Shown: positions 11,759-31,612, counted from the first letter of the stretch. The stretch: 64,000 nucleotides of DNA from Ilumatobacteraceae bacterium (GCA_032118015.1 JAULYE010000010.1:5113-69112); one strand, 5' to 3'. Notes: a model not told the origin generated them from the letters alone. Numbers and translations: made by a program.

Positions 11759-12655
11759 ATGTTTGGGCAACAACGACGTGGTGGATCTTTGGCGTTGGCG
11801 ACGTCGGTGCTTTTCGTTCTTGGTCTTGGTCTCGCCACAGAGTCACCGGGGCCGGTGTCGGCGGCAGGGACGTGCAGTGCGGCTCCCTACTTGGCACAAG
11901 GTGCATCGACGAGTGTTGCCAACGTGCTCGTGACCGCCACCGTCAACACGGCGAAGTCCGTCGGTGGTCAGCCCACCTATTACCTGCATCAATCGGTTCC
12001 GGCCTCGACAACACCTGCTCTCGATACGACGTGGACGTTCTCGCCAGGCATCTCCGAAGTCCAGTTCACAACCATTTTTCACGCTGATGGCAGTTCGCCT
12101 GAGAACTATGCCTTCACTGCAAAGAACTCATCGGGTGGAACCGTGCGCACCTTCGACATCACCGACGTGGACGGCAGCTTTCGGTATGCGTTTTCTGCTC
12201 CCGTCACCGAGATCGTGACCACCTACACCCCGACGTCGGGCATATTTGGCTCGTACTTGATCATGAGCCTGTCATCGGAGCCGGGTGCGTGCGGCGCGGT
12301 CGACCGTCCGGCAACTGTTCGAGCTCCCTCTGGCACCATGACGGCCGGAGCAACGCCTCCGACACTCACGGCAACTGCGTTCGTGACAGGACCCAATCCG
12401 GAGACGCCGGTGACGTTCATGACTGCGCCAACGTGCGGTCTGGAAGATGGTCTCGGCAACCCGGTCGTGCTCTCGAGATCGACGCCGGTGGGAACGTACG
12501 TCGTCGTCTGTGTCGGTGGCACGGCGACGGGTTTCGAATTGCTCACTTACCTCGACGGAGTGTTCGCGGTGGAGGAATACCGGCGGGGCTTTCCAGAGGA
12601 CTACCTGGAGCGTCGTTTGGCTGCCGAAGCCTCGCTTCTTCCCGATACGCGCTGA
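11759..12655 (+). CDS. Secreted protein A1 with a C-terminal MBG-like module, ending ...LLPDTR-stop
   Basis: Signal peptide MFGQQRRGGSLALATSVLFVLGLGLATESPGPVSAAG. The start at the second ATG is conserved with paralog A2. The C-terminal block TCGLEDGLGNPVVLSRSTPVGTYVVVCVGGTATGFELLTYLDG resembles an MBG domain. The last codons are gat acg cgc tga. Confidence 0.75.
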   Translation: MFGQQRRGGSLALATSVLFVLGLGLATESPGPVSAAGTCSAAPYLAQGASTSVANVLVTATVNTAKSVGGQPTYYLHQSVPASTTPALDTTWTFSPGISEVQFTTIFHADGSSPENYAFTAKNSSGGTVRTFDITDVDGSFRYAFSAPVTEIVTTYTPTSGIFGSYLIMSLSSEPGACGAVDRPATVRAPSGTMTAGATPPTLTATAFVTGPNPETPVTFMTAPTCGLEDGLGNPVVLSRSTPVGTYVVVCVGGTATGFELLTYLDGVFAVEEYRRGFPEDYLERRLAAEASLLPDTR

Positions 12656-12889
12656 ACCCCGTTCCTGATACCTCATCCGGGGTCATGGCGAGGATCGTTG
12701 GTTCGGGGACGACCGTACATTCGAGGTGGTCCTTGAACACGTCGTCGATCGGGGCCCTCAAGCGGATTGGTTTACGCCGGGCAATCGCATATTGGATGCT
12801 TGGAGTGCCATTGCCGGCCATGATACAGTTCAGTAGACGTGTGGTAAGGCGCAATTGAGCAGGCGCCCGTCGACAAGAGGTGAGTGACG

Positions 12890-13807
12890 ATGTTCGGGCA
12901 ACGACGACGTGGCGCGTCTTTTATTGTGACGACCTTGATGACCGTGGGCCTGGTGGCCGTCACGGGAGAGTCAGGGCCGGTGTCGGCCGCTGACGAGGGC
13001 GAGGTTTTGCGGTGCACCCCAGTGGTGTATCTCGCTCAGGGAACATCGGTGACAGTCGAGGGCGTTACGGTCACCGCCACACTAAATACGGCACGTGAAA
13101 GTGTGGCCGGAGCCATCAACCCGTACGCGTATTTCTTGGGAGCCCTGTTTGAGCCGGTTGGGTTCGTGGGCTGGCCGGCATCCTTCGAGACGTCCTGGGA
13201 GTTCGATCCACCGATTCCCGCTGTGCGGTTCGAGACGCAATATCACACTGACGGGATAGGAGAGACGTTCACCTTGACTGCGAGAAACTCGAATCTCGCG
13301 AGCCCTCAGATTTGGACGACCGCGATCGTCGATCAGAACACGACCGTTCAAACCGTATTCTCGTCACCTGCGGACAAGATCGATGCGAGGTTCTCGCCGG
13401 AAGTTGGTCAGTTCGCCTCGTATCTCATCATGTGCATTCCCATCCGATCGGCGACCGTGCAAGCGCCGTCCGGCTCCATGGTCACGGGCGAACAACTGCC
13501 GTCACTCGTTGCGACCGCTTTCGTGACACCAGGGATTGTGTCCACAGCAGCTAACACACCAGTGACATTCGATCAGGAGCCAACGTGCGGTCTGGAAGAT
13601 GGTCTCGGCAACTCGGTCGTGCTCTCGAGCTCGACACCCGCGGGGACATACGCCGTCGTCTGTGTCGGTGGCACGGCGACGGGTTTCGAATTACTCACTT
13701 ACCTCGACGGAGTGTTCGTGGTAGAGGAGTACCGGCGGGGCTTTCCAGAGGACTACCTCGAGCGTCGTTTGGCTGCCGAGGCCTCGCTTCTTCCTGACAC
13801 GCATTGA
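12890..13807 (+). CDS. Secreted protein A2 (tandem paralog of A1), ending ...LLPDTH-stop
   Basis: Signal peptide MFGQRRRGASFIVTTLMTVGLVAVTGESGPVSAA. The last ~80 aa are nearly identical to A1. The last codons are gac acg cat tga. Confidence 0.75.
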   Translation: MFGQRRRGASFIVTTLMTVGLVAVTGESGPVSAADEGEVLRCTPVVYLAQGTSVTVEGVTVTATLNTARESVAGAINPYAYFLGALFEPVGFVGWPASFETSWEFDPPIPAVRFETQYHTDGIGETFTLTARNSNLASPQIWTTAIVDQNTTVQTVFSSPADKIDARFSPEVGQFASYLIMCIPIRSATVQAPSGSMVTGEQLPSLVATAFVTPGIVSTAANTPVTFDQEPTCGLEDGLGNSVVLSSSTPAGTYAVVCVGGTATGFELLTYLDGVFVVEEYRRGFPEDYLERRLAAEASLLPDTH

Positions 13808-13883
13808 TCGAAAACGCCACCTGATTTCCGAAGCCAATCGAGCCTTCAGATGGGCGGGAAAGCCCGCTGTCATGTAAATCGCG

Positions 13884-14906
13884 ATGGGTGTGGTCCCACT
13901 GGCGCTGATCGGCGGAGTTCTCGGCGGATCGCAGACAGCCGGCGCAGGTGCCGCCGTCTTCGGCGTCGACTACTTCATATCCGCGCCGCTGGTACAGGGG
14001 TCGTACGTATCGTTGACGTCTGAATTTATCCAGGAAACATTTGATGGCTATGGCTATGGCTCGGGCCCGTGCCCCAGCTCGTTGGCTAGCGGAGCAATCA
14101 CGGTGACCGCCGGCGTGTGCACAGTCAGCGCATTAAACGAGTACGGGGGAGCGAGTTCCACAGGTGCAACTGCCAACGTGGATGACGCTGGCTGGAACTA
14201 TGCCACGACTGGAGGCACTGGACTGATCGAGTTCACGATGTCGGCTCCACAGAGGTACCTCGGATTTTGGTGGAGTGCTGGTTCGGCCTCGAACGCTGTG
14301 ACGTTCTACAGCGGTGAAACGGAGATCTTGAGTTTGACCACTGCTGAAGTCTTCGCCCTGTTCGGCAGTGCCCCCACGAACCAGGCCACGTACACGGTGG
14401 ACGACGTATCAACTGTTGATGCCATTGACCCGAGCATCGAAGCCACAAACGGATCGGCGTATTTCAAGCATCATTACTTCGGGAATCCACGCGGATACTC
14501 CACGACCTCTCCAACGTGGGCTCAATGGAACTTGCACACCTTGGCAAGATCGGAGCCGTTCGTCTACCTCCACATTTTCAGCAAGGGTGGTCTCTACTTC
14601 GACCGCGTGGTCTTTTCGGGTGGTGGATTCGAATTCGACAACTTCGTCGTCTCGCCGTTGGCCCAGACGCCGAATGGCTCTCTCGTGCCTGTGGGAGGTG
14701 TGGAGGGCACGCCTCCTCCAGACTTCGAACCAGATAGTCGTCCGCGCACTCCGTCGATCGATCTGGATCACTACCTCGTGCGGACGGAGTTGCCTGACAC
14801 CGGCGCTGAGTCTGGTGCCGTTGCGTGGATCGGGGCGTGCCTCGTGCTTGGCGGAGGTGCCATCACGGTCAGGGTTCGTCGATCAAGGGTGCGCCTGACA
14901 GCTTGA
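13884..14906 (+). CDS. LPDTG cell-wall-anchored surface protein, family B member 1
   Basis: The C-terminus TELPDTGAESGAVAWIGACLVLGGGAITVRVRRSRVRLTA is a tripartite sortase signal. Conserved blocks are shared with 19929..20984 and 25746..26699. An in-frame TAA lies at 13875, so the start cannot be further upstream. The signal peptide is weak. Confidence 0.75.
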   Translation: MGVVPLALIGGVLGGSQTAGAGAAVFGVDYFISAPLVQGSYVSLTSEFIQETFDGYGYGSGPCPSSLASGAITVTAGVCTVSALNEYGGASSTGATANVDDAGWNYATTGGTGLIEFTMSAPQRYLGFWWSAGSASNAVTFYSGETEILSLTTAEVFALFGSAPTNQATYTVDDVSTVDAIDPSIEATNGSAYFKHHYFGNPRGYSTTSPTWAQWNLHTLARSEPFVYLHIFSKGGLYFDRVVFSGGGFEFDNFVVSPLAQTPNGSLVPVGGVEGTPPPDFEPDSRPRTPSIDLDHYLVRTELPDTGAESGAVAWIGACLVLGGGAITVRVRRSRVRLTA

Positions 14907-15073
14907 TTGCCCGATCGGGCACATGTCAACGCAACTCCTGCCTGATCATCTGAACTGTTGCCGACAAGACGCCCATCCGCAATCGACCCTCCTACGGTTG
15001 GTCGTGTCGGAAACAGGTTCGCATCGTCGAATCAAGAGCAGAGGATTTCTTTGTGGTGCGTCATTCGAAATCG

Positions 15074-16351
15074 ATGGTCGAGAAGTTGGTAATCAGAGTG
15101 TGTATCGGGGTGGCGGCGGGGTCGGTGCTCGGTCTCGTGGCGCTCGAGAGTCCACTGAGTGCGGCTGGCACTCTTGAGGATTTCGAGTCCGATAGCGAGG
15201 GTGGATATCCAGCGAATTGGACCGTTGTTCAAGAACGTGTCGTTCTCGGTGAAACGTCGCTGGCAGGTTGTACATCGATCGATCAGGCGTCGTACGACAC
15301 CTTGGACAATCTCGATGATCCGTGGCGTTTCTTGTGGAGCCCTGAGAGACCTGGCATCGATAGGTCGCCGACTTTCGGCACGCTCGGTTCTGGTACGCAC
15401 GACGAGTACGGATACTTCCGCGAATGGTTCGCTCCCGGTGAATCGAGTCAGTACCTCGTTGATGGAAGCATTCAGTCCTGGTGGTATGACGGTTACTACG
15501 GCTTCGGTCCAGAGGACGACTATCCGAACAACTTCGACCAACTCACCGTCGATCAACGCGTCGACCTTTTGGTGATGCAGGCCGAGTACCTCAACGACCA
15601 GCCAGCGGATCCTCAATGGAGTACCTACGAGGATCGGTACGACGTCATGGTGCTCGACGGCACCGGCTACGGCATCGGATGGAACAGCCAGGTTCTACAG
15701 CTGTACAGCTGGACGGACTCCTACGAAGGCCATGTCATCCACGGCCCGGCGGTCGTCAGCACTGGTGTCTTCAATGTGACGACCGAGGCAACCGTGAGCT
15801 TCAAGTTTTCGGCGTCACGCGACATGGACTATTTCCACGTCTATGGATATCTCCAGGACATCAATGACTGCACGAAGCAGTATCCCGTCCTGGATGCCAC
15901 CGGAGAAAGTCTTGGTTGGTCGACGTTTACGGCCGATGTGCCAACCGGGGAATATCGCTTCGTCTTCGTTGGCGGCACGTATGACGGCACCTGGGGACAG
16001 TTGGGTGGCGCCTTGCTCTGGATCGACGACATTGGATGTGTCGGGCTGGATGGTGGTTCATGTGCAGTCGTCACCTGCGACGCAGATCCAAACGGTCTGA
16101 GCGACTGCACACCTGAGCCGATTGGACCCGGACTCGAGATCGACGAGATCGAGTTCCTCCCCAATGAAAGTGGACCGACGCGTCCGATCCAGTGGATTCA
16201 GGACGCCCTCGCTGCTGAGACAGTCGAGGAATTGCCTTCGACTGGATCGAATACGAACCTGGTGTCATTAGCCGGAGCACTGACAATTCTCGGCGCAGGG
16301 ATAATGGTGCTGCGCCGTCGTCAGACGATCACAGCGTCCTCACGACGATGA
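15074..16351 (+). CDS. LPSTG cell-wall-anchored surface protein (possible lectin/MAM-like jelly-roll domain)
   Basis: Signal peptide MVEKLVIRVCIGVAAGSVLGLVALESPLSAAG (ATG 15074; GTG 15053 is an alternative). The C-terminus is EELPSTGSNTNLVSLAGALTILGAGIMVLRRRQ. The domain guess from YRFVFVGGTYDGTWGQLGGALLWIDDI is tentative. Confidence 0.7.
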   Translation: MVEKLVIRVCIGVAAGSVLGLVALESPLSAAGTLEDFESDSEGGYPANWTVVQERVVLGETSLAGCTSIDQASYDTLDNLDDPWRFLWSPERPGIDRSPTFGTLGSGTHDEYGYFREWFAPGESSQYLVDGSIQSWWYDGYYGFGPEDDYPNNFDQLTVDQRVDLLVMQAEYLNDQPADPQWSTYEDRYDVMVLDGTGYGIGWNSQVLQLYSWTDSYEGHVIHGPAVVSTGVFNVTTEATVSFKFSASRDMDYFHVYGYLQDINDCTKQYPVLDATGESLGWSTFTADVPTGEYRFVFVGGTYDGTWGQLGGALLWIDDIGCVGLDGGSCAVVTCDADPNGLSDCTPEPIGPGLEIDEIEFLPNESGPTRPIQWIQDALAAETVEELPSTGSNTNLVSLAGALTILGAGIMVLRRRQTITASSRR

Positions 16352-16407
16352 GATCTGGGCGCCAGGATGCCCGGCGCCCAGATACTCGTTTTCCAGGAAT
16401 GCGTCTT

Positions 16408-19263: not shown

Positions 19264-19821
19264 TCAGAGAGTGTCGGGCAGTGCGGAGGTTTCGGATCGA
19301 TCGCGCAGGACGAAGTTCGGTACTTCGATGTCGGGCATCGTGTCGAAGTACCGAACCCTGATCGACGTGCTGCACAACACCGATTGTGGGTTCTCCGATG
19401 GGTCATCGCTCGTCGAGGTGTAGGCCACGTTGATGGTGTAGCCGTCGCCGTCTTCGAGGGGCAGTGAGACGCCGAGGAAGAACTCGAGTGTGTCTTCGAG
19501 ATCGAAGCGAGAGACATCAGCGGTTGTTTCGATGTTGACTGGAGTGAAACCACCGGCCAATTCCTGCCACGGTTCGGAGTCACGAGAGATCCATTGCCAC
19601 ATCGCAGCTGGTGCCACCCATCCAGATGCGGAACCGGAGAAGGTTGCGATGGGCTCGAACCGATTCTGGTCGCCGGCGAGAAGGACGAAACCAGGTTCGT
19701 AGGAGATGTCGCATGTTCCCCCCGAACCAGCCGATGCACTAGAGGTACCGAAGGTGAGTGACGCGAGGGCGATCGCTGCGGCGGACAGCGCACGTGTTCG
19801 GATTGGGTGATTGTGATGCAT
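19264..19821 (-). CDS. Secreted 185-aa protein of unknown function, ending ...ALPDTL-stop
   Basis: Signal peptide MHHNHPIRTRALSAAAIALASLTFGTSSASAGSGG. The last codons on the minus strand are ctg ccc gac act ctc tga. Confidence 0.7.
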   Translation of the reverse strand: MHHNHPIRTRALSAAAIALASLTFGTSSASAGSGGTCDISYEPGFVLLAGDQNRFEPIATFSGSASGWVAPAAMWQWISRDSEPWQELAGGFTPVNIETTADVSRFDLEDTLEFFLGVSLPLEDGDGYTINVAYTSTSDDPSENPQSVLCSTSIRVRYFDTMPDIEVPNFVLRDRSETSALPDTL

Positions 19822-19928
19822 GAGAATTCCCTAAAGTCGGACTGAATAGATACGTCACAGAGAGTAGATCAATCGGGTCTCAGTAGCGCAGTTTTTTAGG
19901 AACATTGTTGGTTTATGGTGAGGACATT

Positions 19929-20984
19929 GTGAGCGGAACAGCAGTTAAGCGCGTCCTATTTTTCGTTGTCCCCCTCCTCACGGTCGGTGGCACCCTTGGC
20001 GGGTCATCGGGGGTGAGCGCCGGAGTGTCCGAGTACGGCGTGGACTACTACATCTCACCACCACTCGTTCAGGGATCGTACGTGCCTGGGCAATCCGAGG
20101 ACTTCAACGATTTTGATACCGCGGCTACTTGTCCGCCGACGATTGCCAATGGAGAGATCGCCGTGACGGGTGCGTGCAAAACTCTGATAGCGGATGGATC
20201 CGGAGGAGCAACTGCGGAAGCAATAGATCCGACTCCCACAGTGGGCGCACCAGGTTCGGATTACGCAAGCACAGACTCTGGGGGAGAGATCACCTTCATC
20301 ATGCCCGAGGCTCAGCGTTATCTGGGTTTCTGGTGGAGCGCAGGTTCCGGCGGCAACATTGTTCGATTCTTTGACGGGGACAACGAGGTGCTCTCGTTGA
20401 ACACCGATGACCTAACGGCTCTTCTCGGGTTAGCGCCAACCAGTGTCGGTGACTTCGGATCGACAGGATTTATCGAGTCCCTGGATACGGCCTCGACCTA
20501 CGTCAGACATCACTATTTTGGTAATCCGCGCGGTGTGTTGGCCAGCGCGGCTGGCAGCCCACCGGTGATGACGGCAGCGCTGTGGGAGGGGAACACAACC
20601 AATTACGTGCCCGTCCCTGGCGGAACCATTTACTCGGAACCCTTCGTCTACCTTCATGTCCTCGGACAGGGAAACTTGAGCTTCGACCGGGTGACCTTTT
20701 CCGGCTTCGGCTTCGAATTCGACAACTTCGTGGTGTCGCCGTTCAGTCAAACACCACAGGGCTCATTGGTTCTTGCTGGTTCCGCCGCCGGAACGCCGCC
20801 GCCGGACTTCGAGCCGCCAGCTGGTGGCGGTCGCACACCGTCGATCGATCTCGGTCATTATCTCGAACGCTCTGAGTTGCCCAACACGGGCCGCCGCAAC
20901 ATGAGTCTCGAGTGGATGGCAGCAACGTTCGTTGCAATCGGAACGATTCTCTTGGGTGCACAGCGACGCATACGTCGCGTGTGA
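19929..20984 (+). CDS. LPNTG cell-wall-anchored surface protein, family B member 2
   Basis: GTG 19929 gives (M)SGTAVKRVLFFVVPLLTVGGTLGG, preceded by ggtgagga. The C-terminus is SELPNTGRRNMSLEWMAATFVAIGTILLGAQRRIRRV. It shares the GVDYYISPPLVQGSYV, QRYLGFWWSAGSGGN, HHYFGNPRG and FEFDNFVVSP blocks. Confidence 0.8.
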   Translation: MSGTAVKRVLFFVVPLLTVGGTLGGSSGVSAGVSEYGVDYYISPPLVQGSYVPGQSEDFNDFDTAATCPPTIANGEIAVTGACKTLIADGSGGATAEAIDPTPTVGAPGSDYASTDSGGEITFIMPEAQRYLGFWWSAGSGGNIVRFFDGDNEVLSLNTDDLTALLGLAPTSVGDFGSTGFIESLDTASTYVRHHYFGNPRGVLASAAGSPPVMTAALWEGNTTNYVPVPGGTIYSEPFVYLHVLGQGNLSFDRVTFSGFGFEFDNFVVSPFSQTPQGSLVLAGSAAGTPPPDFEPPAGGGRTPSIDLGHYLERSELPNTGRRNMSLEWMAATFVAIGTILLGAQRRIRRV

Positions 20985-21163
20985 AAGCTCTCGGTACATC
21001 GTTGACGTTCGCTGTTGTTTCTCGCATGTGACCGAAAGGACACCAGGAGTCGGCACCGAAAGGTCACCTGTTGTTCACTGTGCACCTACTGTCATGGCAT
21101 CGGCATTCGCCGATTCATGACACGACGTTTCGATCCCGAATCGTCCGTTCACAGGAGGAATCA

Positions 21164-21733: not shown

Positions 21734-21799
21734 TTTCCTGACGCAGTCACCCAGTGCAATCTGATAGTTGGGGCGAGGTCTTCGGACTTCGCCCCAACT
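21711..21799. repeat. 89-bp direct repeat, copy 1 (last 23 nt of the fasciclin gene plus its terminator)
   Basis: tcgcagcacttcttgctggctgatttcctgacgcagtcac[c]cagtgcaatctgatagttggggcgaggtcttcggacttcgccccaact. It is repeated at 22492-22580 with a single mismatch. Confidence 0.95.
21766..21799 (+). terminator. Stem-loop terminator of the fasciclin gene (15-bp stem with one G.U pair, TTCG loop)
   Basis: agttggggcgaggtc-ttcg-gacttcgccccaact, located 33 nt after the stop codon. No U-tract, as is common in Actinobacteria. Confidence 0.7.
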
Positions 21800-21833
21800 C
21801 GTTGTCCGGTGCTAGTGCACTTGGTCCATGATG

Positions 21834-22283
21834 TCAGGGGAGATTTTGCAAGTCGTCATGATCTTTGGGCCGTCCACTCGCTTGCTTGTTGACCTTGAGA
21901 TCGTTCAATGAAATAACGGGAACCAGTAATCCACTGATTATCCGAGATTCGGAACGTCCGTAACAAGCATCGAATGTGACTCCATCGATGTCCATGAGAA
22001 TCTCGATGCGAATTGGTGCTTCACCCATTCGAACGATGCGGTCAGGGTCTTCGAACAGTGGAGGAGTCAGATCTGGAGTGTCGAACCCAAATTCACGTAG
22101 ACACGCAACAATTCGTTCAGCGTTGGTGCGATTTCTTGCAACCCAGATGTCCAAATCTGCAGTGGCGCGCGGGTAGCCATGAAGTGCAACTGCAAACCCT
22201 CCGACGAGGAGATATTCAACGTTGTGGTCGTTGAGTAATTTCAAGAACTCGGAGAAGTCTTGAGGAAACTCGATCTTGTCCAT
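21834..22283 (-). CDS. Nucleotidyltransferase-fold protein (MNT/AbiEii-like; putative toxin-antitoxin or defence component)
   Basis: FSEFLKLLNDHNVEYLLVGGFAVALHGYPRATADLDIWV is the classic GG...HG..R.T.D.D minimal NTase motif. Confidence 0.7.
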   Translation of the reverse strand: MDKIEFPQDFSEFLKLLNDHNVEYLLVGGFAVALHGYPRATADLDIWVARNRTNAERIVACLREFGFDTPDLTPPLFEDPDRIVRMGEAPIRIEILMDIDGVTFDACYGRSESRIISGLLVPVISLNDLKVNKQASGRPKDHDDLQNLP

Positions 22284-22416
22284 AGTTCATCCTGACCAGT
22301 TCAAGAACGTGTTGAAGACGGGCTTCGGGGGCCTGAGTTGACCAGTACGCCTTATCCAATTCGGTGGCTTCTTGGTGAGTGGCCGAAATGTGCAGCGTTT
22401 TCTCCATCGAGCCCAA
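22216..22416 (-). CDS. Small partner protein of the NTase (66 aa)
   Basis: MGSMEKTLHISATHQEATELDKAYWSTQAPEARLQHVLELVR...RLLRVLEI. It lies immediately upstream of the NTase and overlaps it by 68 nt out of frame. The call is uncertain. Confidence 0.4.
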   Translation of the reverse strand: MGSMEKTLHISATHQEATELDKAYWSTQAPEARLQHVLELVRMNYGQDRVSSRLLRVLEITQRPQR

Positions 22417-22491
22417 ATTCTACCGATCGATGCGAAGAGTTGGAGATAAGACTCCCGTGCTCCTTGGCCCGACTACCCAACGCAATCGTGA

Positions 22492-22580
22492 TCGCAGCAC
22501 TTCTTGCTGGCTGATTTCCTGACGCAGTCACTCAGTGCAATCTGATAGTTGGGGCGAGGTCTTCGGACTTCGCCCCAACT
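22492..22580. repeat. 89-bp direct repeat, copy 2 (orphan fasciclin 3' end plus terminator hairpin at 22547-22580)
   Basis: Identical to 21711-21799 except for one c-to-t change. Confidence 0.95.
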
Positions 22581-22732
22581 ATCTCACCTTCGTTGCGGAG
22601 GCAGTACGCGAGATTCTCCGCCTATCATGAAAAAATGCAAAGACTGAAGAGTTTCATCGCCCCAGTCGTCGTTATCGCCGTCGCCACTGCCGTCTTCATA
22701 GCTAGTGCAGTTCGACTTTGACGTGAGTCGGT

Positions 22733-22957
22733 TTATTTCTTTTCGTCCGGCAAATTATCGATGCCATTACCGATTGCCATGAATGTTGGAGCCCAGAGCC
22801 CAACGAAAATTCCAAAGCGCTCTCCTGATGCTTGAACCTCGCCGTTATCTGTTCCGCCCTGAGTGAACCAGATGACGATGCTCGCAATAACCGACAGGAA
22901 TCCAAGCGCATAGGAAAGATTCGCGCTGTAGCCCCATGATTTCAATTTCCTCAACAT
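22733..22957 (-). CDS. Small two-TM membrane protein (74 aa)
   Basis: A strong aaggag SD lies 5 nt before ATG 22957. MLRKLKSWGYSANLSYALGFLSVIASIVIWF...FGIFVGLWAPTFMAIGNG. It is divergent from the GNAT-AAA gene. Confidence 0.6.
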   Translation of the reverse strand: MLRKLKSWGYSANLSYALGFLSVIASIVIWFTQGGTDNGEVQASGERFGIFVGLWAPTFMAIGNGIDNLPDEKK

Positions 22958-23161
22958 ACGTACTCCTTGTTGCAAATTGAAATGAGCTTTTGCCCACGTG
23001 CGAATTGTCCCACACAGTCAAAGAACCTCACGGGATGCTGGGCGGCGTCCCGGCACGTCCCATTCCTTTGCGTGACTCGATCATTGACAAAGGTTGGAGT
23101 CATCACCAGACTCGAGGCACATCAGAGGCGTCTCGGCCAAAAGGTCGGTAAGAATACAACT

Positions 23162-24430
23162 ATGAGCGTCGTCATTCGGGATCTGCTTCTCACAGACATC
23201 GGCCCTGCTGTGCGTCTCCTGGAGGAATGTCGAAATCTGGCTGATACGAAACCGGCAGATATCGCACAATTCGTGAATGACGTTTCCTCTGGCGCACCAG
23301 GAGTCGTCGCGGTTCTCGGTGAAAAGATCGTGGGAATCATCCAAGCTCGCACCGTCGCTGACGATGCCTGGATCAACGTTGTTGTTATCGATAGTTCCTG
23401 GCGTCATCAAGGACTGGGTTCCAAGATGCTGCAAAGGCTCGAAGAAAAGTTGATGCATCTGGGTGTACGGAAAATCTCTGCTTTGCTGTCGAATTCCCAA
23501 GCAGGAGAAACCGCTTTGGTGAATCGTGGTTTCACCTCCACTCACGATCTCGTGCTGTACGAGAAGTTGGAGCCGATTGCTCCGACTGCGATGCGTATCG
23601 TCGATCAATATGGCGGGGAGATTCTGCCGACAACGCTTTGGGACCGTGTTGCTGGAATGCATGAGGAAAAACGGGTCATTGATGGGCGTGTAGTGGCGCC
23701 CTTGGCCGATCCAACGACTGCTGAGAAAGTGGGAGTCAAGGCTCCAGCAACTGTCTTGCTTTTTGGCCCTCCGGGCACTGGCAAGACAACTTTTGCCAAA
23801 GCCATTGCGGGTCGTCTTGGGTGGCCATTTATTGAACTACTGCCGTCCAAATTGGAAAGCGGAAGTGACTCGATGTCGTCGGAACTTCGAACTGCCATCA
23901 GTGATCTTCTCCAGTTGGATCACGCGGTTGTCTTCATCGATGAATTCGATGAGATCGCCTCGGCCAGGGAACACAATCCAACAACAAAAGGGGTGGTGAA
24001 CGAATTATTGAAAATGATTCCTCTCTATCGATCCACCCCGGGACACTTGTTGGTCTGTGCCACGAATTTCGTAGGAGACATTGACTCGGCTGTGTTGCGT
24101 CCGGGCAGATTTGACTTGGTGATCCCGATCGGCCCGCCCGATCTCGTGGCGCGACGTGCATTGTGGAACGCTGCCCTTTCGTCGCTGGACCACCGTGGCG
24201 TCGAAATTGAAAAGCTCGCGCTTCAAACCGAGGGTTACACACCTGGTGATGTGGAATTGGCGGCCCAAAGGGCTGCAGCTGCTGCCTTTGACCGCATTCG
24301 AGAAGGTGCTGAGCCTCCGCATATTTCCGCAGACGATCTTGATGCGGCTATCGCCCGTACTCGAGCCTCGGTGACGAGTGAAATTCGCCAACGATTCAGC
24401 GAAGAGGCCGATCGATTCGCTCGGGTGTGA
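23162..24430 (+). CDS. GNAT acetyltransferase / AAA+ ATPase fusion protein
   Basis: Start at ATG 23162 (MSVVIRDLL). GNAT motif A is WRHQGLGSKMLQRLEEKL. The AAA+ part has Walker A LLFGPPGTGKTT, Walker B AVVFIDEFDE, NFVGDIDSAVLRPGRFD (second region of homology with Arg finger) and a C-terminal helical lid. Confidence 0.8.
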   Translation: MSVVIRDLLLTDIGPAVRLLEECRNLADTKPADIAQFVNDVSSGAPGVVAVLGEKIVGIIQARTVADDAWINVVVIDSSWRHQGLGSKMLQRLEEKLMHLGVRKISALLSNSQAGETALVNRGFTSTHDLVLYEKLEPIAPTAMRIVDQYGGEILPTTLWDRVAGMHEEKRVIDGRVVAPLADPTTAEKVGVKAPATVLLFGPPGTGKTTFAKAIAGRLGWPFIELLPSKLESGSDSMSSELRTAISDLLQLDHAVVFIDEFDEIASAREHNPTTKGVVNELLKMIPLYRSTPGHLLVCATNFVGDIDSAVLRPGRFDLVIPIGPPDLVARRALWNAALSSLDHRGVEIEKLALQTEGYTPGDVELAAQRAAAAAFDRIREGAEPPHISADDLDAAIARTRASVTSEIRQRFSEEADRFARV

Positions 24431-24495
24431 ATGTCTCAAGGGTTTGATCTCAGCGAGTTCCTCAGTCGTCGGACCGACCTCGAGTCCCGCGTCAC

Positions 24496-24837
24496 GGCGA
24501 GCCGGCCAACACGGCCACCACCGAAGTCACGATAGAAGACAGTGACTCCAGCGAGGAGTTGGGCGACATCGTTTCCGTCGCATCTGCTGCTGGCTCGTTC
24601 TCGACCTTGGCTGCGGCTCTCGAAGCTGCCGGTCTCATTGAGACCCTTCAAGGTGAAGGTCCTTTCACCGTGTTCGCACCCACGGATGAGGCATTCGCTG
24701 CCCTTCCCGATGGGTTGCTCGACGCCCTGCTCCTCCCGGAGAACGTTGAAGTTTTGAAGTCCATCTTGCTGTTCCACGTGATCAGCTCGGTCATGGTTCC
24801 GTCCGATGTGGATGTGGCTGCGCTGCTTGCTGGCTGA
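24496..24837 (+). pseudogene. Fasciclin paralog remnant (no signal peptide or lipobox; ~58-aa internal deletion)
   Basis: [11 protein letters not shown]...[53 protein letters not shown] aligns with 21164..21733. An in-frame TGA lies upstream at 24445. The sequence jumps from LLFHVIS directly to [16 protein letters not shown]. Confidence 0.7.
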
Positions 24838-24865
24838 TTCCAGACGAAAATCGATCAATTCGAAA

Positions 24866-24899
24866 AGTGGGGGTGAGGCTTGCGGGCTTCACCCCCACT
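24866..24899 (+). terminator. Terminator hairpin, variant B copy 1 (14-bp stem with one G.U pair)
   Basis: agtgggggtgaggc-ttgcgg-gcttcacccccact. It has the same architecture as the 21766 hairpin and is repeated at 26817-26850. Confidence 0.7.
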
Positions 24900-24989
24900 C
24901 GTTTGTGGGAGCGAAAGAAAAAGTTTTCCGCTGGGGCCTCTCTTTCGAATTCACCGCTCACGCCTATTCTGTTATCGGTGGATCAAACA

Positions 24990-25583
24990 GTGACAAGTCG
25001 CAAACGATCTCGGGAACCAGAGACGATGGAAAGGATTCTCATCAGCGCCCGCAAAGAGATTGCGGCGAAGGGAATTCTCGGTCTTCGTGTCGCCGATGTT
25101 GCAGAGGGAGCATTTTCCTCTGTGACTCAGATCTACCGCTACTTCGGTGATCGAAACGGACTCTTGGCCCGCGTACTCGGCGATTGGTACGAGGAGTCCC
25201 TTGATCAGAGTCTGACCACTATCCAGAAGCGACTCGACGTAATCGAAAACGTGACGATCGATGACATTGCTGATGCGCTACCCAGTCCGACCGAGGATTG
25301 GGTACGCGTTCACAGTGGCATGCGGCTTCAGATTCTTGCGACATCTGTGACCAATTCAGCGCTTCAGGAACGCCTGAAGGCAATCGCCAGCGTCCATTTG
25401 CTTCGATGGAACGAGTACATCGAACGCGTGGCATCGAGGCTTGGTGACGAAGAAGAGTTGGATGATCGAGTGTTCACGATCATGATCGCGATGCAGATGC
25501 CGTACTACCGGTTCCTACTCGATGACGGCGGTTTCAGTGAATCGGAGTACCGCGATTTTTTACGACAGAAGTTGCGCCGCTGA
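24990..25583 (+). CDS. TetR-family transcriptional regulator
   Basis: SRKRSREPETMERILISARKEIAAKGILGLRVADVAEGAFSSVTQIYRYFGDRNGLL is a TetR N-terminal HTH. The start is GTG 24990 or ATG 25026. Confidence 0.8.
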   Translation: MTSRKRSREPETMERILISARKEIAAKGILGLRVADVAEGAFSSVTQIYRYFGDRNGLLARVLGDWYEESLDQSLTTIQKRLDVIENVTIDDIADALPSPTEDWVRVHSGMRLQILATSVTNSALQERLKAIASVHLLRWNEYIERVASRLGDEEELDDRVFTIMIAMQMPYYRFLLDDGGFSESEYRDFLRQKLRR

Positions 25584-25622
25584 CGCAGGCGCGCTTGGTG
25601 AGTTGATTGTGATGAACTGAAG

Positions 25623-25650
25623 CTTGCGGAAGAAAATTTTCTTCCGCAAG
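25623..25650. promoter_or_regulatory. Perfect 28-bp palindrome (cttgcggaagaaaa/ttttcttccgcaag): candidate TetR operator or bidirectional terminator
   Basis: Verified base by base. It lies 40 nt after the TetR stop and 96 nt before the LPNTG gene start. Confidence 0.5.
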
Positions 25651-25745
25651 TCGGTCATTGTCTCTTTGTTCCCGAGCACATAAACAGGTGGGGCTCACAA
25701 TGTGCATGGCTCTTACGCCCATTACCGAAAGTTGAAGGAACAATC

Positions 25746-26699
25746 ATGAGTTTTCGTCTTCGTGCAGGTACTGCGGCATCCACGGTCGTGTTGGTGGCTG
25801 CCGCCGCTCTGGCACAGGCTGCCCCAGCTGGTGCCATCGGCGCGGTCTTCGGACTCGACTACTACATCAGCGCGCCATTGGTCCAAGGAACACACGTATC
25901 AGGCGGAGTTAAGGAAAATTTCAACTCCTTGGTATCGTGCAGCGGCTCGATCGGAACGGGCAGTGCAATTGCGGTTTCCGGAGATTGCGTGCTGGAGAGT
26001 TCTGCGAATCAATTCGGTGGGGCCGTAACGGACAGCGCGACCCCAACGGCTGGAGGCAGCGGTTCAGCTTTCCCAATTGCTGACAATGATCCAGGAACCA
26101 CCTTCACTCTTTCTGGACCGCAGTGTTATCTCGGCTTTTACTGGACTGCCGGCTCGGGTGGCAACACCGTTGAGTTCTTCAGTGACGGGGAACTGGTTCT
26201 CTCTTTCAACAGTGATCAAATTATTGCAATCCTCAATCCAAGTGAAGTAGCAACACTCGTGTCAGTAGGTGGCACGACGTATCAGAAGGCACTTTGGTAC
26301 GGCAATCCCCGCGGTCACTCGGATATCGATTCCAATGGAATACCCGACGGAACCTCAACCCTCAACGATGGCGAGCCTTATGTCTACCTCAACGTTTATG
26401 GTAAGGGTGGTTTGACGTTCAACTCGGTTCGGTTCTCTGGCCCCAACTTCGAATTCGACAATCTTGCGTTCTCTTCTTCGTGCGAGACGCCCCCGAGTTC
26501 GAGTGTCTATCTTGGCTACGTTGGAGAAGGCGAACCTGAGTCGCCGAACTTGCGGATTAATCCAGACTACCTCACACGAACGACCGAGGAACTTCCGAAC
26601 ACCGGGGCCTCATCAAATACTCTTAACTGGGTCGCTTTGGCCCTCGCCGGAGGAGGCATTTCTCTCCTAAGGATTCGACGAAGACTTGCCGAGTACTGA
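25746..26699 (+). CDS. LPNTG cell-wall-anchored surface protein, family B member 3
   Basis: Signal peptide MSFRLRAGTAASTVVLVAAAALAQAAPAGA. Blocks: GLDYYISAPLVQGTHV, CYLGFYWTAGSGGN, WYGNPRG, EPYVYLN, FEFDNLAFS. The C-terminus is EELPNTGASSNTLNWVALALAGGGISLLRIRRRL. Confidence 0.8.
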   Translation: MSFRLRAGTAASTVVLVAAAALAQAAPAGAIGAVFGLDYYISAPLVQGTHVSGGVKENFNSLVSCSGSIGTGSAIAVSGDCVLESSANQFGGAVTDSATPTAGGSGSAFPIADNDPGTTFTLSGPQCYLGFYWTAGSGGNTVEFFSDGELVLSFNSDQIIAILNPSEVATLVSVGGTTYQKALWYGNPRGHSDIDSNGIPDGTSTLNDGEPYVYLNVYGKGGLTFNSVRFSGPNFEFDNLAFSSSCETPPSSSVYLGYVGEGEPESPNLRINPDYLTRTTEELPNTGASSNTLNWVALALAGGGISLLRIRRRLAEY

Positions 26700-26710
26700 T
26701 CTTTAGAACT

Positions 26711-26788
26711 TCCAACGGCGTGATCCACGTGATCAGCTCGGTCATGGTTCCGTCTGATGTGGATGTGGCTGCTCTTCTTGCTGGCTGA
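26711..26788 (+). pseudogene. Orphan fasciclin 3' fragment ([25 protein letters not shown]-stop)
   Basis: Matches the last 25 codons of the fasciclin genes. It is followed by hairpin B copy 2. Confidence 0.8.
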
Positions 26789-26816
26789 TTCCAGAAGAAG
26801 ATCGAAATCCTCTAAA

Positions 26817-26850
26817 AGTGGGGGTGAGGCTTGCGGGCTTCACCCCCACT
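26817..26850 (+). terminator. Terminator hairpin, variant B copy 2
   Basis: Identical to 24866-24899. Confidence 0.7.
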
Positions 26851-26895
26851 GCATTTTCTGAAGACGGCGCCCGAATTGACTGTCAGACTGTCGCC

Positions 26896-27387
26896 ATGAG
26901 CGTCGTGATTCGAGATTTACTGTCGACCGATATCAGCCCCGCTGTGCGGCTGTTGGAAGAGTGTCGATCCCTACCTGATACGAAACCGGCCGATTTCGCC
27001 CAATTCGTGAGCGATGTGTCATCTGGTGCTCCAGGTGTCGTCGCGGTCGACGCGGCCTAGCGCCACAAAGGAATCGGCTCGGCGATGCTGCAGCGTCTGG
27101 AAGAAAAGTTGATGCATCTGGGTGTACGGAAAATCTCTGCTTTGCTGTCGAATTCCCAAGCAGGAGAAACCGCTTTGGTGAATCGTGGTTTCACCTCCAC
27201 TCACGATCTCGTGCTGTACGAGAAGTTCGAGCCCATTGCTCCGACTGCGATGCGTATCGTCGATCAATATGGTGGCGAGATTCTGTCGGCCGATCTGTGG
27301 GATCGGGTAGCTGGCATGCACGAAGAAAAGAGAATCATCGACGGGCGTGTCGTAGCGCCACTCGCCGACCCGAACAAAGCAGAATAA
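26896..27387 (+). pseudogene. Decayed GNAT/linker half of a second GNAT-AAA+ gene
   Basis: MSVVIRDLLSTDISPAVRLLEEC... parallels copy 1. It has a ~26-codon deletion, an in-frame TAG (27058-27060) before RHKGIGSAMLQRLEEKL, and an in-frame TAA (27385-27387) where copy 1 has Lys. Confidence 0.75.
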
Positions 27388-27393
27388 GTCGGT

Positions 27394-28089
27394 GTGAAGG
27401 CCCCGGCGACGGTGCTGCTCTTTGGCCCTCCAGGAGCCGGGAAGACGACCTTCGCCAAAGCAATAGCCGGCCGTCTGGGATGGCCGTTCATCGAGTTGCT
27501 GCCGTCCAAATTGGAGAGCGGAAGTGATTCGATGTCTTCGGAGTTGCGCACGGCAATGAACGACTTGTTGCAACTGGATCGTGCTGTCGTCTTCATCGAC
27601 GAGTTCGACGAAATCGCATCGGCCAGAGAACGCAACCCCACGACCAAAGGAGTGGTCAACGAATTGCTGAAGATGATTCCGGCGTATCGATCTGCGCCGG
27701 GACATCTCTTGGTGTGCGCCACGAATTTCGTCGGCGAAATCGACTCGGCTGTGTTGCGTCCGGGCAGATTTGACTTGGTGATTCCGATCGGTCCGCCCGA
27801 TCTGACAGCCCGGATTGCTCTGTGGGAAGCAGCGCTCTCACGCCTCGATCAACGCGGAGTCGACATCGACAATCTGGCGAGGAACACCGAGGGTTACACA
27901 CCTGGTGACGTCGAGCTGGCTGCCCAACGAGCAGCAGCTGCCGCATTCGATCGGATTCGCGAAGGGGCAGGACCCTCTTACGTCTCAGCTGACGACCTCG
28001 ACAGGGCGATCGGGCGCACCCGGGCATCGGTCACCAGTGACATTCGCCAGCGGTTCGCCGACGAAGCAGATCGCTTCGCCCGCGTCTAG
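27394..28089 (+). CDS. AAA+ ATPase module of the second copy (possibly still expressed from GTG 27394)
   Basis: Intact Walker A (GPPGAGKTT), Walker B (VVFIDEFDE) and RPGRFD. Most differences from copy 1 appear to be synonymous (by eye). Confidence 0.55.
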   Translation: MKAPATVLLFGPPGAGKTTFAKAIAGRLGWPFIELLPSKLESGSDSMSSELRTAMNDLLQLDRAVVFIDEFDEIASARERNPTTKGVVNELLKMIPAYRSAPGHLLVCATNFVGEIDSAVLRPGRFDLVIPIGPPDLTARIALWEAALSRLDQRGVDIDNLARNTEGYTPGDVELAAQRAAAAAFDRIREGAGPSYVSADDLDRAIGRTRASVTSDIRQRFADEADRFARV

Positions 28090-28193: not shown

Positions 28194-28266
28194 GCCTCCG
28201 TAGCTCAGTGGATAGAGCAACGGTTTCCTAAACCGCAGGTCGCAAGTTCGATTCTTGCCGGGGGCG
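28194..28266 (+). tRNA. tRNA-Arg (anticodon CCU)
   Basis: GCCTCCG-TA-GCTC-AGTGGATA-GAGC-A-ACGGT-TTCCTAA-ACCGC-AGGTC-GCAAG-TTCGATT-CTTGC-CGGGGGC-G. Cloverleaf with T33, anticodon CCT and A37. CCA is not encoded. Confidence 0.85.
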
Positions 28267-28576
28267 CCGCAGAACACCTTGATACCGCAGGTTTTCTTGG
28301 ATGCGCCATCTCGTGCTGACATCAGTTGTCTGCCGAGTTCTGTATCCATTTCTAGATGAGCCGTGGATGATCATCTACCTCACGTCATGGAGGCAGCTCA
28401 CCTTCTCGCGCCAGCAAACTTCATGCATGTGATTTGAAATTGCGAACGACCACACCGGAATGATTGGTGACATCTGTATGTGGTATTGAAGAGTTCCGAC
28501 GGTAGACCAGTAAGTGGCAACTGTTAGGTGGGTGGTTCTGGCGGATCACGCAGTATTGAGGTGGGAGCACCCTTTC

Positions 28577-31500
28577 ATGTTTATTTGGCTATTGGGGCAA
28601 AGAGGTTCTGGGCATAGGTCGATCATCGTGGGAGCGCCTGCGCGATTGCTTGCCGTCGTGCTCTTGGGCGTTGCGCTGATCCAGGTCTTTGCAAGCGACG
28701 AAGTTGCAGGGGATACGCACTGCGATCTCACCGTTGGTGAGATCGTTGACGTGGACAGCCCCGTACTCGACACCATTCAAAAAGCGATCGATGCAGCTCA
28801 GCCCGGTAACACCGTGTGCATTCCTGCGGGCTCGTATACCGAGAACATCGTCGTCGCAAAGCAGATCACTCTCACAGGAAGCGAAATAGCGGATGATCCA
28901 ACGACAATCAATTCTGGATCTGCCGGAATACCGGTCGTCACCGTCTCAGGGACCGGTAGCCCCGAGGGTGGTCGTCTCGAAATCAGTCACGTGACAGTCA
29001 CTGGCGCACTGGGTACGACGAATATTGGCGCTGGAATTCTCGTCAGTTCGCCTTCAGATCAGACGGGGCTGTCGTTCACCTCTGTGACTTCGACTGGCAA
29101 CGAAGGTGCGGGTATTGCCTTCAATGGCACGCCGTCCATATCTGATGTCGTGATGGACGACGTCACTTCATCCCTAAATGGCGAAGCGGGGATTCGCATC
29201 GCGTCTTCAATTTTGTCCTTCAATGGCCTGACCGTGAACAACTCCACCATCTCCTCAAACGGACACAATGGATTCAGCTTCAACCCGAGTGGATCCAACG
29301 TCGTGGGGACGAATTTCACGTTCACGGACAGCACATTTGAACTGAACAACACCAAGGGAGTGGTCAACTCTCATGATTTGTCGTTCTTCGGCTTCAATGG
29401 AAATGCCACACTCGACACAGTCTCTGTCACTACGGCGAGCGGGACTCCTGCGCATGGCGGATATGGAGTTGTCTTCCTCGGCAAGACTCCCTTCACTGCA
29501 GCAGGCAGTATCCGTCTCGAGAACGTCACCGTAAACGGGGCAGTAGGAAAGGGAGCACTCACATTTCAGCGATACACGGACCTTGCGTCCGTCGTGATGG
29601 TTGACGTGGATGTATCGGGAACCGTGGCCCCTTGGGGCCAGGTGATCGTCGATCACACTGGAGTGACTCCTCTCGACCTCGGCACTACCACAACGAAGAG
29701 CATCGTTCTCTGGAAAAGCGGAGGTGTCGACGCGACCGAAGTCAATCTCCTGACTGCAGCTGGAACCCCGCTCAATCGAAGCTCGCTCGCCGATGGATTC
29801 GATGCCGAAGATCAGATCGGTCACGCTGTTGACTTGGTGGGGCTCGGATTGGTGCGTTGGAAAGAGTCAACCCTCTTCGTCACACCATCGAGCTTCGCCG
29901 CTCCCTCGTCGACATCAGCCAGTATTCAACGCGCGATCAACATCTCAGTTGCTGGGGACACAGTGAATGTTGAAGCGGGTGTGTACCCCGAGGGAATGGT
30001 GAACCTCGACAAGGAGGGACTGACACTTCGAGGAGCTCAGTGGGGCGTTGACGCATTTACCCGAGGGCCATCTGGGATACCAGACAACGAGACGATCCTC
30101 AGTAATTCAGGCAGAATTTTCGACTTGAATGCACCGAACATAACTATTGATGGCTTCGTCTTTTCCAATCTCGGCAACAGAGCATTGGACAGCTATTCGT
30201 ACATAGACGGATTGACGATCAAAAACACCATTTTTGTCGTCACAAGTAACAGTTCTGACAGTGGTGCAATTCAATTCGGTGGTGGAAGTGGAAGCAGTGG
30301 GCCGTACACGGCGAATTATTTCACCTTCGAGCGAAATTATCTCACGGGAACAGGAAGCGGCCCTGTGCTCTACCTCGGACATCAGATGTCCGGTGGAACG
30401 ATCAAGGGCAATGTGTTCAACAGTCGGAGACTCACGTTCGGTCCATTCGGGCAGCCCGACGGTTGGGTCATCGAAGGCAACACTTTTGATGGGAATGTTG
30501 CGGGGGTTGCTTCAATAGCCCCCGGTGGAGCTTCCGGTACCTATGTCGGTTATGGGTTCAACGCTCAATTCGGTGATGCAGTATTCCGAAATAATGTCGT
30601 GTCGAAGATGTATCTCGGCATCGGCCAAATCAGCCTCGTTGATGGTCAAATTATTGGCAACACTTTCGAAGACAACTACGCGGGGGCATTCCAACTCTGG
30701 GGCGGTGAATACGAGTCCCCAGTTTCCCGTGATGTGCTCATCGCCAACAATCTCTTCTCGTACAACGGCACTGACAATACGTCGGATGATGCCGGGTTCT
30801 TATCGCAGGGATTCCGTCTTCGTCCTGGCTGTGATGTGGCTGAACCGTGCTCCGACCCAACGACCCCAAACGCGGCGTTGATTCAAGTTTTCCAAAATCG
30901 ATTCATCGATTTGAATCAAAGCGGTGGCAAGACCCAAGTTTGGGCTGTGCGTAACAATTATCCTGGCGTCGTCGACGCAGAGTTCAATTATTGGGGCTCA
31001 GATGTTGTGACTGTTCTCGAGTCGAAGGTTGGTAAGGGAAGTTCCGACGCGGGCTCGGGGGCGGGTGACGTGTTCCCATGGATTTCGTCGTACACACCTG
31101 ATCCGACCAAGGTAGGTCAGCCAGGATTCTGGCCGATTGATATCCAATCGCGCAGCTTGATCACCGCAGGAGAAGGGGATGAGTCGGTGAGTGGCGATCC
31201 CAGCCTTGGATCGCCGTCGATCTCTTTCGGCTCGGCCCTCGCTGGACCAATCTCGGTGACGTTCTCCTCCATTGTCGCGACACCCGAGACAGCCCTTCTC
31301 TTCGAAAGCCCTCCGTTCAACATGAGCACCGCTGTGCTTGTCGACATATCGATCGACGGGGATGCCGAGCCTCCCTACAAAATTTGTCTCGCACGGTCCG
31401 ACGACTTTGACACGATCTGGCACTTCGAGGATGATGCATGGGTCAACATCACTGACGCAGTTCAGGGCCCCGATGGTTTCCTCTGTGGGACTACAGGGAC

Positions 31501-31612
31501 GTTGTCCCCATTCGCAGTAGCGGAGGCTCTGCCTCCGGAACCAGAGGGACCGGGTTCGAGACCGCCATCTTTTGACTTTGAACTTCCTTTGCTGTTGCCA
31601 GACACGCGCTGA
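28577..31612 (+). CDS. Large secreted right-handed parallel beta-helix (PbH1/pectate-lyase-fold) protein, ending ...LLLPDTR-stop
   Basis: Signal-like MFIWLLGQRGSGHRSIIVGAPARLLAVVLLGVALIQVFASDE (ATG 28577; GTG 28514 is an alternative). There are many N/G/T-rich approximately 22-residue beta-helix coils (ITLTGS..., NGEAGIRIASS..., ISSNGHNGFSF...). The last codons are gac acg cgc tga. Confidence 0.7.
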   Translation: MFIWLLGQRGSGHRSIIVGAPARLLAVVLLGVALIQVFASDEVAGDTHCDLTVGEIVDVDSPVLDTIQKAIDAAQPGNTVCIPAGSYTENIVVAKQITLTGSEIADDPTTINSGSAGIPVVTVSGTGSPEGGRLEISHVTVTGALGTTNIGAGILVSSPSDQTGLSFTSVTSTGNEGAGIAFNGTPSISDVVMDDVTSSLNGEAGIRIASSILSFNGLTVNNSTISSNGHNGFSFNPSGSNVVGTNFTFTDSTFELNNTKGVVNSHDLSFFGFNGNATLDTVSVTTASGTPAHGGYGVVFLGKTPFTAAGSIRLENVTVNGAVGKGALTFQRYTDLASVVMVDVDVSGTVAPWGQVIVDHTGVTPLDLGTTTTKSIVLWKSGGVDATEVNLLTAAGTPLNRSSLADGFDAEDQIGHAVDLVGLGLVRWKESTLFVTPSSFAAPSSTSASIQRAINISVAGDTVNVEAGVYPEGMVNLDKEGLTLRGAQWGVDAFTRGPSGIPDNETILSNSGRIFDLNAPNITIDGFVFSNLGNRALDSYSYIDGLTIKNTIFVVTSNSSDSGAIQFGGGSGSSGPYTANYFTFERNYLTGTGSGPVLYLGHQMSGGTIKGNVFNSRRLTFGPFGQPDGWVIEGNTFDGNVAGVASIAPGGASGTYVGYGFNAQFGDAVFRNNVVSKMYLGIGQISLVDGQIIGNTFEDNYAGAFQLWGGEYESPVSRDVLIANNLFSYNGTDNTSDDAGFLSQGFRLRPGCDVAEPCSDPTTPNAALIQVFQNRFIDLNQSGGKTQVWAVRNNYPGVVDAEFNYWGSDVVTVLESKVGKGSSDAGSGAGDVFPWISSYTPDPTKVGQPGFWPIDIQSRSLITAGEGDESVSGDPSLGSPSISFGSALAGPISVTFSSIVATPETALLFESPPFNMSTAVLVDISIDGDAEPPYKICLARSDDFDTIWHFEDDAWVNITDAVQGPDGFLCGTTGTLSPFAVAEALPPEPEGPGSRPPSFDFELPLLLPDTR

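Follow-up and report, generated by a model that had tools for sequence, protein, structure and literature searches.

Can an LPxT sorting motif be kept once the membrane helix and basic tail that normally follow it are gone? The question is raised by a stretch of 64,000 nucleotides from an Ilumatobacteraceae bacterium (GCA_032118015.1, JAULYE010000010.1:5113-69112; hereafter the window, with positions counted from its first letter), in which four proteins with signal peptides, A to D, end in LPDT, one further residue (Arg, His or Leu) and the stop codon. Sortase signals and the other short C-terminal sorting domains so far described consist of a motif, a membrane helix and a basic tail, and the helix and tail are thought to be needed to hold the substrate at the membrane. 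Here both are missing, and the form is still conserved across unrelated families. As far as sequence comparison can tell, the ends of A to D are genuine protein ends and derive from the LPxTG cell-wall sorting signal, in a form that has lost its tail and is conserved. What might read this derivative is weighed below.

Four secreted proteins end one residue after LPDT

The last codons, read from the sequence, are exactly those claimed in an earlier note on this DNA, which had singled out the four proteins:

11759-12655, plus strand: protein A, 298 amino acids, ending SLLPDTR (GAT ACG CGC TGA); motif and stop at 12638-12655
12890-13807, plus strand: protein B, 305 amino acids, ending SLLPDTH (GAC ACG CAT TGA); LLPDTH and stop at 13790-13807
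19264-19821, minus strand: protein C, small secreted protein of 185 amino acids, ending SALPDTL (GAC ACT CTC TGA); end at 19264-19281
28577-31612, plus strand: protein D, right-handed beta-helix surface protein of 1011 amino acids, ending LLLPDTR (GAC ACG CGC TGA); end at 31595-31612

Protein A comprises a signal peptide, a beta-sandwich resembling carbohydrate-binding modules and adhesins, an immunoglobulin (Ig)-like domain, a short helix and a flexible LLPDTR-stop tail. In the AlphaFold model (mean predicted local distance difference test score, pLDDT, of 77) the helix, EDYLERRLAAEA (nucleotides 12596-12631, residues 282-293), lies between the last beta domain and the flexible SLLPDTR tail, and the resemblance of the first domain to carbohydrate-binding and adhesin beta-sandwiches is weak. 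The model of C, with a pLDDT of 48, was too poor for use. The earlier note had called A and B an MBG-type pair. The pairing stands, since B is a paralogue of A and the last 252 nucleotides of the two genes are 89% identical; the MBG label was not confirmed by Pfam, and the model shows an Ig-like fold for the second beta domain.

The note had also counted at least three unrelated architectures, and had argued that shared descent of the tail could not explain the pattern. Both points hold. D is a beta-helix protein by its Pfam match (PF13229), and by profile comparison A and C belong to unrelated families: hhalign gives the pair a probability of 3%, with the signal peptide as the sole matching part. 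Distant homology between A and C, which might be suspected from the G-T-C with which both begin after the signal peptide, is ruled out by the same value. A shared 3' DNA cassette moving between families was also rejected; A/B, C and D have only the motif codons in common, and the 252-nucleotide repeat is confined to A and B.

The position of the stop is not due to chance

A six-frame scan of the whole window for LPxT ends found exactly four in which the protein stops one residue after Thr (+1) and four at +31 to +35, with none between. Among the 253 long open reading frames (ORFs) of the window, 0.075 ends of the +1 type are expected from amino-acid composition, against the four observed; counting the paralogues A and B once leaves three independent cases (Poisson P ~7e-5). 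Not one of 5441 long ORFs in 1.07 Mb from 80 related Ilumatobacteraceae species ends in this way (Fisher P ~4e-6), and the same 1.07 Mb does hold a canonical LPxT cluster at +31 to +37. The enrichment of terminal LPxT-x that the earlier note had proposed to look for is therefore seen, as a comparison of the window with 1.07 Mb from relatives rather than with a complete genome, and a chance origin of the window's LPxT+1 ends is excluded. A stop directly after Thr occurs neither in the window nor in the 1.07 Mb of relatives, and a stop two residues past Thr was found once, in an ORF from related loci.

Homologues keep the stop at +1

The window and independent metagenome assemblies, all within one genus-level clade (YchF ~94-99% identical), together provide 20 instances of the end, LP[DHNS]T-X-stop, 16 of them in the A superfamily, 2 in the C family and 2 in the D family. 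L and P are invariant, T is present in 19/20, and x is D, H, N or S. At P1', the position after Thr, there is R in 12 cases, L in 7 and H in 1, always as the last residue; Gly (or Ala, Asn or Ser) does not occur there.

The A homologues P0002-P0010, at 50-57% identity, keep the +1 stop and end in ELPDLR, ELPHTR, ELPHTL, ALPDTR, ALPDTL, ALPDTL, ELPHTL, SLPNTR and LLPDTR, and more A paralogues on the homologue contigs end in GLPSTR, GLPDTR, ALPDTL, DLPSTR and DLPSTR. The 20-30 residues preceding the motif in this family are unalignable. P0040, the closest relative of C (59% identity), ends in ALPNTL-stop. P0033, the closest relative of the C-terminal half of D (67% identity), has another domain layout and ends in AELPDTR-stop; full-length D homologues, which come from other phyla and carry type IX secretion system (T9SS) or RTX tails, share only the first beta-helix module and are uninformative on the C-terminus. 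On these alignments the LPxT-X-stop end is kept by purifying selection over ~50% sequence divergence. Fixed L, P and T around a free x are the pattern of a sortase motif, and the switch between the chemically unlike R and L at the last residue fits a leaving group rather than a recognised C-terminal residue.

Signal peptides were called by a heuristic (K/R, hydrophobic core, AxA-like site); by this measure all 15 full-length tail-less proteins carry 2-7 K/R before a 12-residue hydrophobic core (Kyte-Doolittle mean 2.1-3.3), followed by an AxA-like site. At the other end they lack a hydrophobic segment, the best 15-residue Kyte-Doolittle mean being ≤0.88, as against 1.8-2.25 in the four canonical proteins of the window described below. 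The tail-less C-terminus holds one Arg or His at most, with no basic cluster, and A to D gave no match to the LPXTG models TIGR01167 and PF00746 at E ≤ 0.1.

The distribution is narrow. A-family loci were absent from GTDB representative genomes and one short locus was found in a metagenome contig collection. The tail-less ends are confined to the genus-level clade, itself known from metagenomes only, and are not general in Ilumatobacteraceae.

The ends are neither sequencing artefacts nor recoded tails

Errors, pseudogenes left by recent nonsense or frameshift mutation, or a bypass of the stop that would produce a downstream transmembrane (TM) helix and Arg tail could each in principle give such ends. 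Three features of the window could be read in this way: an open -1 frame past the stop of A, a -1 frame of C that gives LTGGAVVALV, and the use of TGA for all four stops. The extension of A, which occurs in A only, runs for 67 codons (12656-12858, plus strand) and ends in AIAYWMLGVPLPAMIQFSRRVVRRN, with a hydrophobic stretch and RRVVRRN that resemble a membrane helix and basic tail. It recurs only within the same species (contig L084), lacks a counterpart past the stops of B, C and D, and could be either a relic or a chance occurrence. Recoding to a hidden tail was rejected, as this sole -1 extension is not conserved.

Against all of these possibilities, the LPxT-X-stop ends recur in assemblies made independently from different samples and drawn from different sources (ENA, JGI, Logan and NCBI), and the stop is held at +1 in the closest A, C and D homologues (50-67% identity), so the strain-specific nonsense mutations or assembly errors raised in the earlier note do not account for it. 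Over the 14 instances for which DNA is available, the readthrough, -1 and +1 frames past the stop contain no recurrent helix and Arg tail. The stop is TGA in 12 of these and TAG in 2, which rejects a TGA-specific decoding. The last sense codons vary, and the terminal Leu is encoded by both CTC and TTG; the TTG codons also dispose of a nucleotide-level constraint on the last codon, suggested by the C-initial codons of the window. Artefact or recoding is in consequence largely refuted, and we regard either as very improbable.

Kinship with canonical LPxTG proteins

The earlier note had reported four canonical tripartite signals among the neighbouring genes, and these are confirmed. Each has E-LP[DSN]TG followed by 31-35 residues with a hydrophobic helix and an Arg cluster:

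13884-14906, plus strand: E1, Npun_F0296 domain, then HYLVRTELPDTG, TM helix and Arg-rich tail
15053-16351 (alternative start 15074), plus strand: E2, EELPSTG, TM helix and RRR tail
19905-20984 (alternative start 19929), plus strand: E3, divergent neighbour of C, Npun_F0296 domain, then HYLERSELPNTG, TM helix and RR tail
25746-26699, plus strand: E4, Npun_F0296 domain, then DYLTRTTEELPNTG, TM helix and RRRR tail

E1, E2 and E4 reach the TIGR01167 cut-off, and E2 also that of PF00746. E3 matches neither model; its tail was read from the sequence, where it is plain. The Npun_F0296 domain (NCBIfam NF050191), named as exosortase-dependent (PEP-CTERM), is fused to LPXTG anchors in E1, E3 and E4, a case of 'choice of anchor' in an actinobacterium.

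Tail-less and canonical proteins share gene clusters, a spectrum of x residues that are mostly acidic or polar (D, N, S, H) in this clade, and a pre-motif. The last is an aromatic element, D/H/N-Y/F-L/V/I-x-R, placed 4-16 residues upstream of LPxT in A, B, C, E1, E3, E4 and homologues. This DYLxR-type element is present in 14/19 tail-less proteins, 4/7 canonical proteins of the clade and 0/21 canonical proteins from other Ilumatobacteraceae, which have LP[RK]TG after Pro-rich linkers. In the model of A it forms the short helix at residues 282-293.

The two forms also meet within families. The A family includes canonical members (P0011/L085a, QLPATGG with TM helix and RRR), as does the C family (P0041, LPNTG, and P0042, LPETG, each with TM helix and RRR). 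When the C family is aligned, the motifs fall in register, with the terminal Leu in the column of the P1' Gly, and on contig L085 a canonical paralogue directly adjoins two tail-less ones. The earlier note had named orthologues that continue into a normal Gly, helix and charged tail as evidence that would refute it. The closest homologues do not have one; some distant A and C members do, which points to interconversion of the two states and does not refute the class. By these alignments, tail-less and canonical forms interconvert in the A and C families. As the most distant C-family member is canonical, the canonical state is probably ancestral. The tail-less end arose more than once from canonical signals with LPxTG, TM helix and Arg, in no fewer than two unrelated families and probably in a third.

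Two further large secreted proteins of the window, whose domains were assigned by eye and not by hidden Markov model (HMM), end without LPxT:

53825-55939, minus strand: subtilisin-like protease with a signal peptide
58230-61907, minus strand: adhesin-like secreted protein of 1225 amino acids, whose linker is rich in Thr and which has an RTX-like region rich in Gly and Asp

The motif is thus not general to the exported proteins of this organism.

Comparison with known C-terminal signals

We found no account of a natural LPxT-X-COOH class in the full-text literature searched, in line with the earlier note, which was not aware of such a description, although coverage was incomplete and this is absence of evidence only. 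The nearest relative is the canonical LPXTG signal itself (TIGR01167/PF00746). Both forms have a signal peptide, surface-type passengers and an L-P-x-T core with the same fixed and free positions, stand at the C-terminus of several unrelated carriers per genome, and interchange in register in the same families and loci. The tail-less ends differ in having R, L or H at P1', a free carboxylate one residue past Thr and neither helix nor basic cluster, and they are missed by the HMMs. Against Haft's criteria for such domains (10.1101/2023.06.07.544157), the tail-less end shows the C-terminal location, several copies per genome (4 in 20 kb), at least three invariant residues, signal peptides and unrelated carriers, multiplicity and unrelated carriers being criteria 2 and 7, whereas the TM helix and the basic cluster are lacking. 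As these two elements are absent and the LPXTG HMMs are blind to it, the tail-less end is better treated as a variant of this kind of signal than counted within the canonical LPXTG domain family.

In PEP-CTERM/exosortase, PGF-CTERM, GlyGly-CTERM and MYXO-CTERM domains a signature motif precedes a TM helix, which is followed in turn by an Arg cluster (10.1101/2023.06.07.544157). They share with the present system the 'choice-of-anchor' logic, seen in Npun_F0296 on LPXTG anchors and in the beta-helix module of D, which elsewhere carries T9SS or RTX tails. They are cut by intramembrane enzymes, however, and the tail-less ends have no helix or Arg cluster. The closest precedent for a tail-less transpeptidase signal is that of butelase-1, a peptidyl asparaginyl ligase: its signal, Asx-His-Val, is very short, lies right at the C-terminus and lacks a membrane segment, and a cysteine transpeptidase removes one or two residues before ligating the new C-terminus (PMC9126251, section 2.2.1). 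Butelase-1 belongs to an unrelated, legumain-like plant enzyme family with another motif and small cyclic peptide targets, and it serves as an analogy only.

A tentative sortase donor and its alternatives

The reading that we favour, tentatively and at a little under an even chance, is that the tail-less LPxT-X end is a sortase donor signal, read by the same LPxT-recognising enzyme as the canonical form; we infer this dependence on a sortase from the kinship described above. The tail-less architecture comprises a signal peptide, passenger domains, a short aromatic/amphipathic pre-motif and LPxT, closed by a single R, L or H that bears a free carboxylate. A sortase whose gene lies outside the window, its existence implied by the four canonical substrates E1-E4, would recognise both the canonical and the short form. 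On the short form it would attack the T-X bond, the single terminal residue leaving as a free amino acid; linkage of the protein to the wall, or to a partner protein that is itself anchored, could follow with no prior retention at the membrane. The fixed tail would at the same time allow fast exchange of passenger domains in a hypervariable surface-protein hotspot. Sortases are grouped into classes A-F, of which E and F are typical of Actinomycetota. A soluble donor of this kind is plausible, as SrtA in vivo adds soluble LPETG peptides that lack a TM segment to the Staphylococcus aureus wall (PMC3929722). Rather more doubtful is the narrower proposal of a dedicated actinobacterial sortase for which LPxT-X-COOH would be a natural minimal donor; such an enzyme could do without both a membrane-tethered substrate and a P1' Gly, and would release one free amino acid. 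If that were true, release of a single residue would make the transfer effectively irreversible, and secreted proteins that have left the membrane could still form a covalent link with the wall or with anchored partners; LPxT-X would be the first sortase signal in nature to depart from the three-part plan, and a ready one-residue ligation tag.

Several observations weigh against a sortase donor. Sortase P1' residues are normally Gly or Ala, not Arg or Leu, and in classical sorting signals removal of the hydrophobic helix and charged tail leads to secretion instead of anchoring. No sortase was found in the window, by TLxTC motif in a suitable ORF or among those ORFs that were compared with Pfam or inspected by eye, as the earlier note had also stated, and no other obvious processing enzyme was found there either. 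The homologue P0002 has LPDLR in place of LPxT, which may be a decaying motif. Most instances, 16/20, are in the A superfamily, and the C and D families are represented by the window protein and one homologue each. Finally, a free carboxylate at P1' makes a peptide no substrate for S. aureus SrtA, according to a review of sortase ligation (PMC9126251, section 2.1).

This rejection of a free carboxylate, the secretion that follows loss of helix and tail, and the possible motif decay in P0002 also favour a rival reading, in which the tail-less proteins would be shed, as anchor-less alleles of formerly wall-anchored proteins whose C-terminus no enzyme touches, the LPxT being kept for some other purpose, for example contact with anchored paralogues together with the pre-motif. 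The side-by-side arrangement of tail-less and canonical paralogues, in the window and on L085, fits such a division of labour between anchored and soluble forms. There are parallels in the long and short chaplins of Streptomyces, where short unanchored forms co-assemble with long sortase-anchored ones, and in Listeria InlA with premature stops: in one family some members are sortase-anchored and others are anchor-less, released or co-assembling. Those unanchored forms, however, lose the LPxTG/LAxTG or stop variably upstream, whereas here the motif is kept and the stop is fixed at +1. An allele selected for release could stop anywhere past the last domain, but the stop is at exactly +1 in 20 instances from three unrelated families, and L, P and T are conserved while the adjoining linker has diverged past alignment. 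If the Gly codon GGA simply became TGA, the easiest truncation, the protein would end in LPxT-stop, of which we saw no case in the window or its relatives. We consider release without further processing unlikely. Quite unlikely, in our estimate, is that LPxT-X-COOH is a tag for a different partner, namely a protease or carboxypeptidase that processes C-termini, a C-terminus-binding domain of PDZ type, or a surface receptor that has no catalytic role and would hold the protein non-covalently. Such recognition typically involves the very end of a protein and its free carboxylate, and the carboxylate intolerance of characterised sortases (PMC9126251) and the lack of a sortase gene nearby also speak for this reading. 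Readers of C-termini, however, usually fix the last residue, and here Arg and Leu alternate while L, P and T (-4, -3 and -1) are fixed; the motif is identical to canonical LPxT and interchangeable with it in register, in the same families and loci, and no candidate enzyme adjoins the genes. The specific reading of D-T-L as a PDZ class III ligand was rejected, being incompatible with the R and H ends and with H, N and S at x.

Genomic context

The DNA belongs to Ilumatobacteraceae, Acidimicrobiia, and the YchF encoded in the window is 95% identical to that of a freshwater metagenome-assembled genome. In L001, the closest species representative (YchF 95%), ychF adjoins the lipoprotein and FAA-hydrolase genes, which in the window occupy 16.4-18 kb; all that separates ychF from these genes in L001 is a degraded remnant resembling A (RAPSGAMIFGDDPPALVPTV; ORF 4707-5183, minus strand; L001 4663-5118). 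This gene order indicates that the block of A, B, E1 and E2 (11.7-16.4 kb) is accessory and marks an insertion/deletion hotspot. In a survey of ychF synteny in 80 species the block was carried by none, and none had an LPxT+1 end; other tail-less loci lie at the same hotspot, beside ychF or the FAA hydrolase gene.

Contig L084, from the same species (flanks with 99.4-99.5% nucleotide identity), carries a divergent, shorter A allele of 171-204 amino acids without the second beta domain. When L084 2604-3549 is set against window 11553-12589, identity is regained ~66 nucleotides before the stop, and the 3' end, intergenic region and gene B are alike (window 12590-13425); the A passenger was therefore swapped on a fixed tail.

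D lies in a different setting, next to a tRNA gene:

28194-28268, plus strand: tRNA-Arg(CCT), immediately upstream of D, at the edge of a lower-GC, rearranged accessory segment

The GC content is 0.545-0.555 over 20-32 kb, as against ~0.60 in the flanks, and together with the tRNA-Arg gene suggests an island or recombination-prone segment. Within it, segmental duplications have turned 21071-28089 into a patchwork. A fasciclin gene has its 3' end (21071-21733) repeated at 24499-24839, 26711-26790 and 22492-22580, the last copy with 99% identity over 89 nucleotides and a hairpin, and a GNAT and AAA ATPase gene (22967-24430) is partly duplicated at 26868-28089, where only the AAA half is intact (27394-28089). 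Scans for regulatory RNAs, promoters and terminators gave nothing informative.

Implications

If the tail-less ends are sortase-dependent, the definition of a sortase substrate changes, as current HMM and regular-expression searches miss such proteins entirely, and the enzyme concerned would have an unusual P1' and carboxylate tolerance, of practical interest in protein ligation. If they are not sortase-dependent, they would constitute a new C-terminal tag with another reader. In either case, the LPxT-X end offers a concrete point from which to test the surface biology of freshwater Acidimicrobiia, a group both abundant and uncultured.

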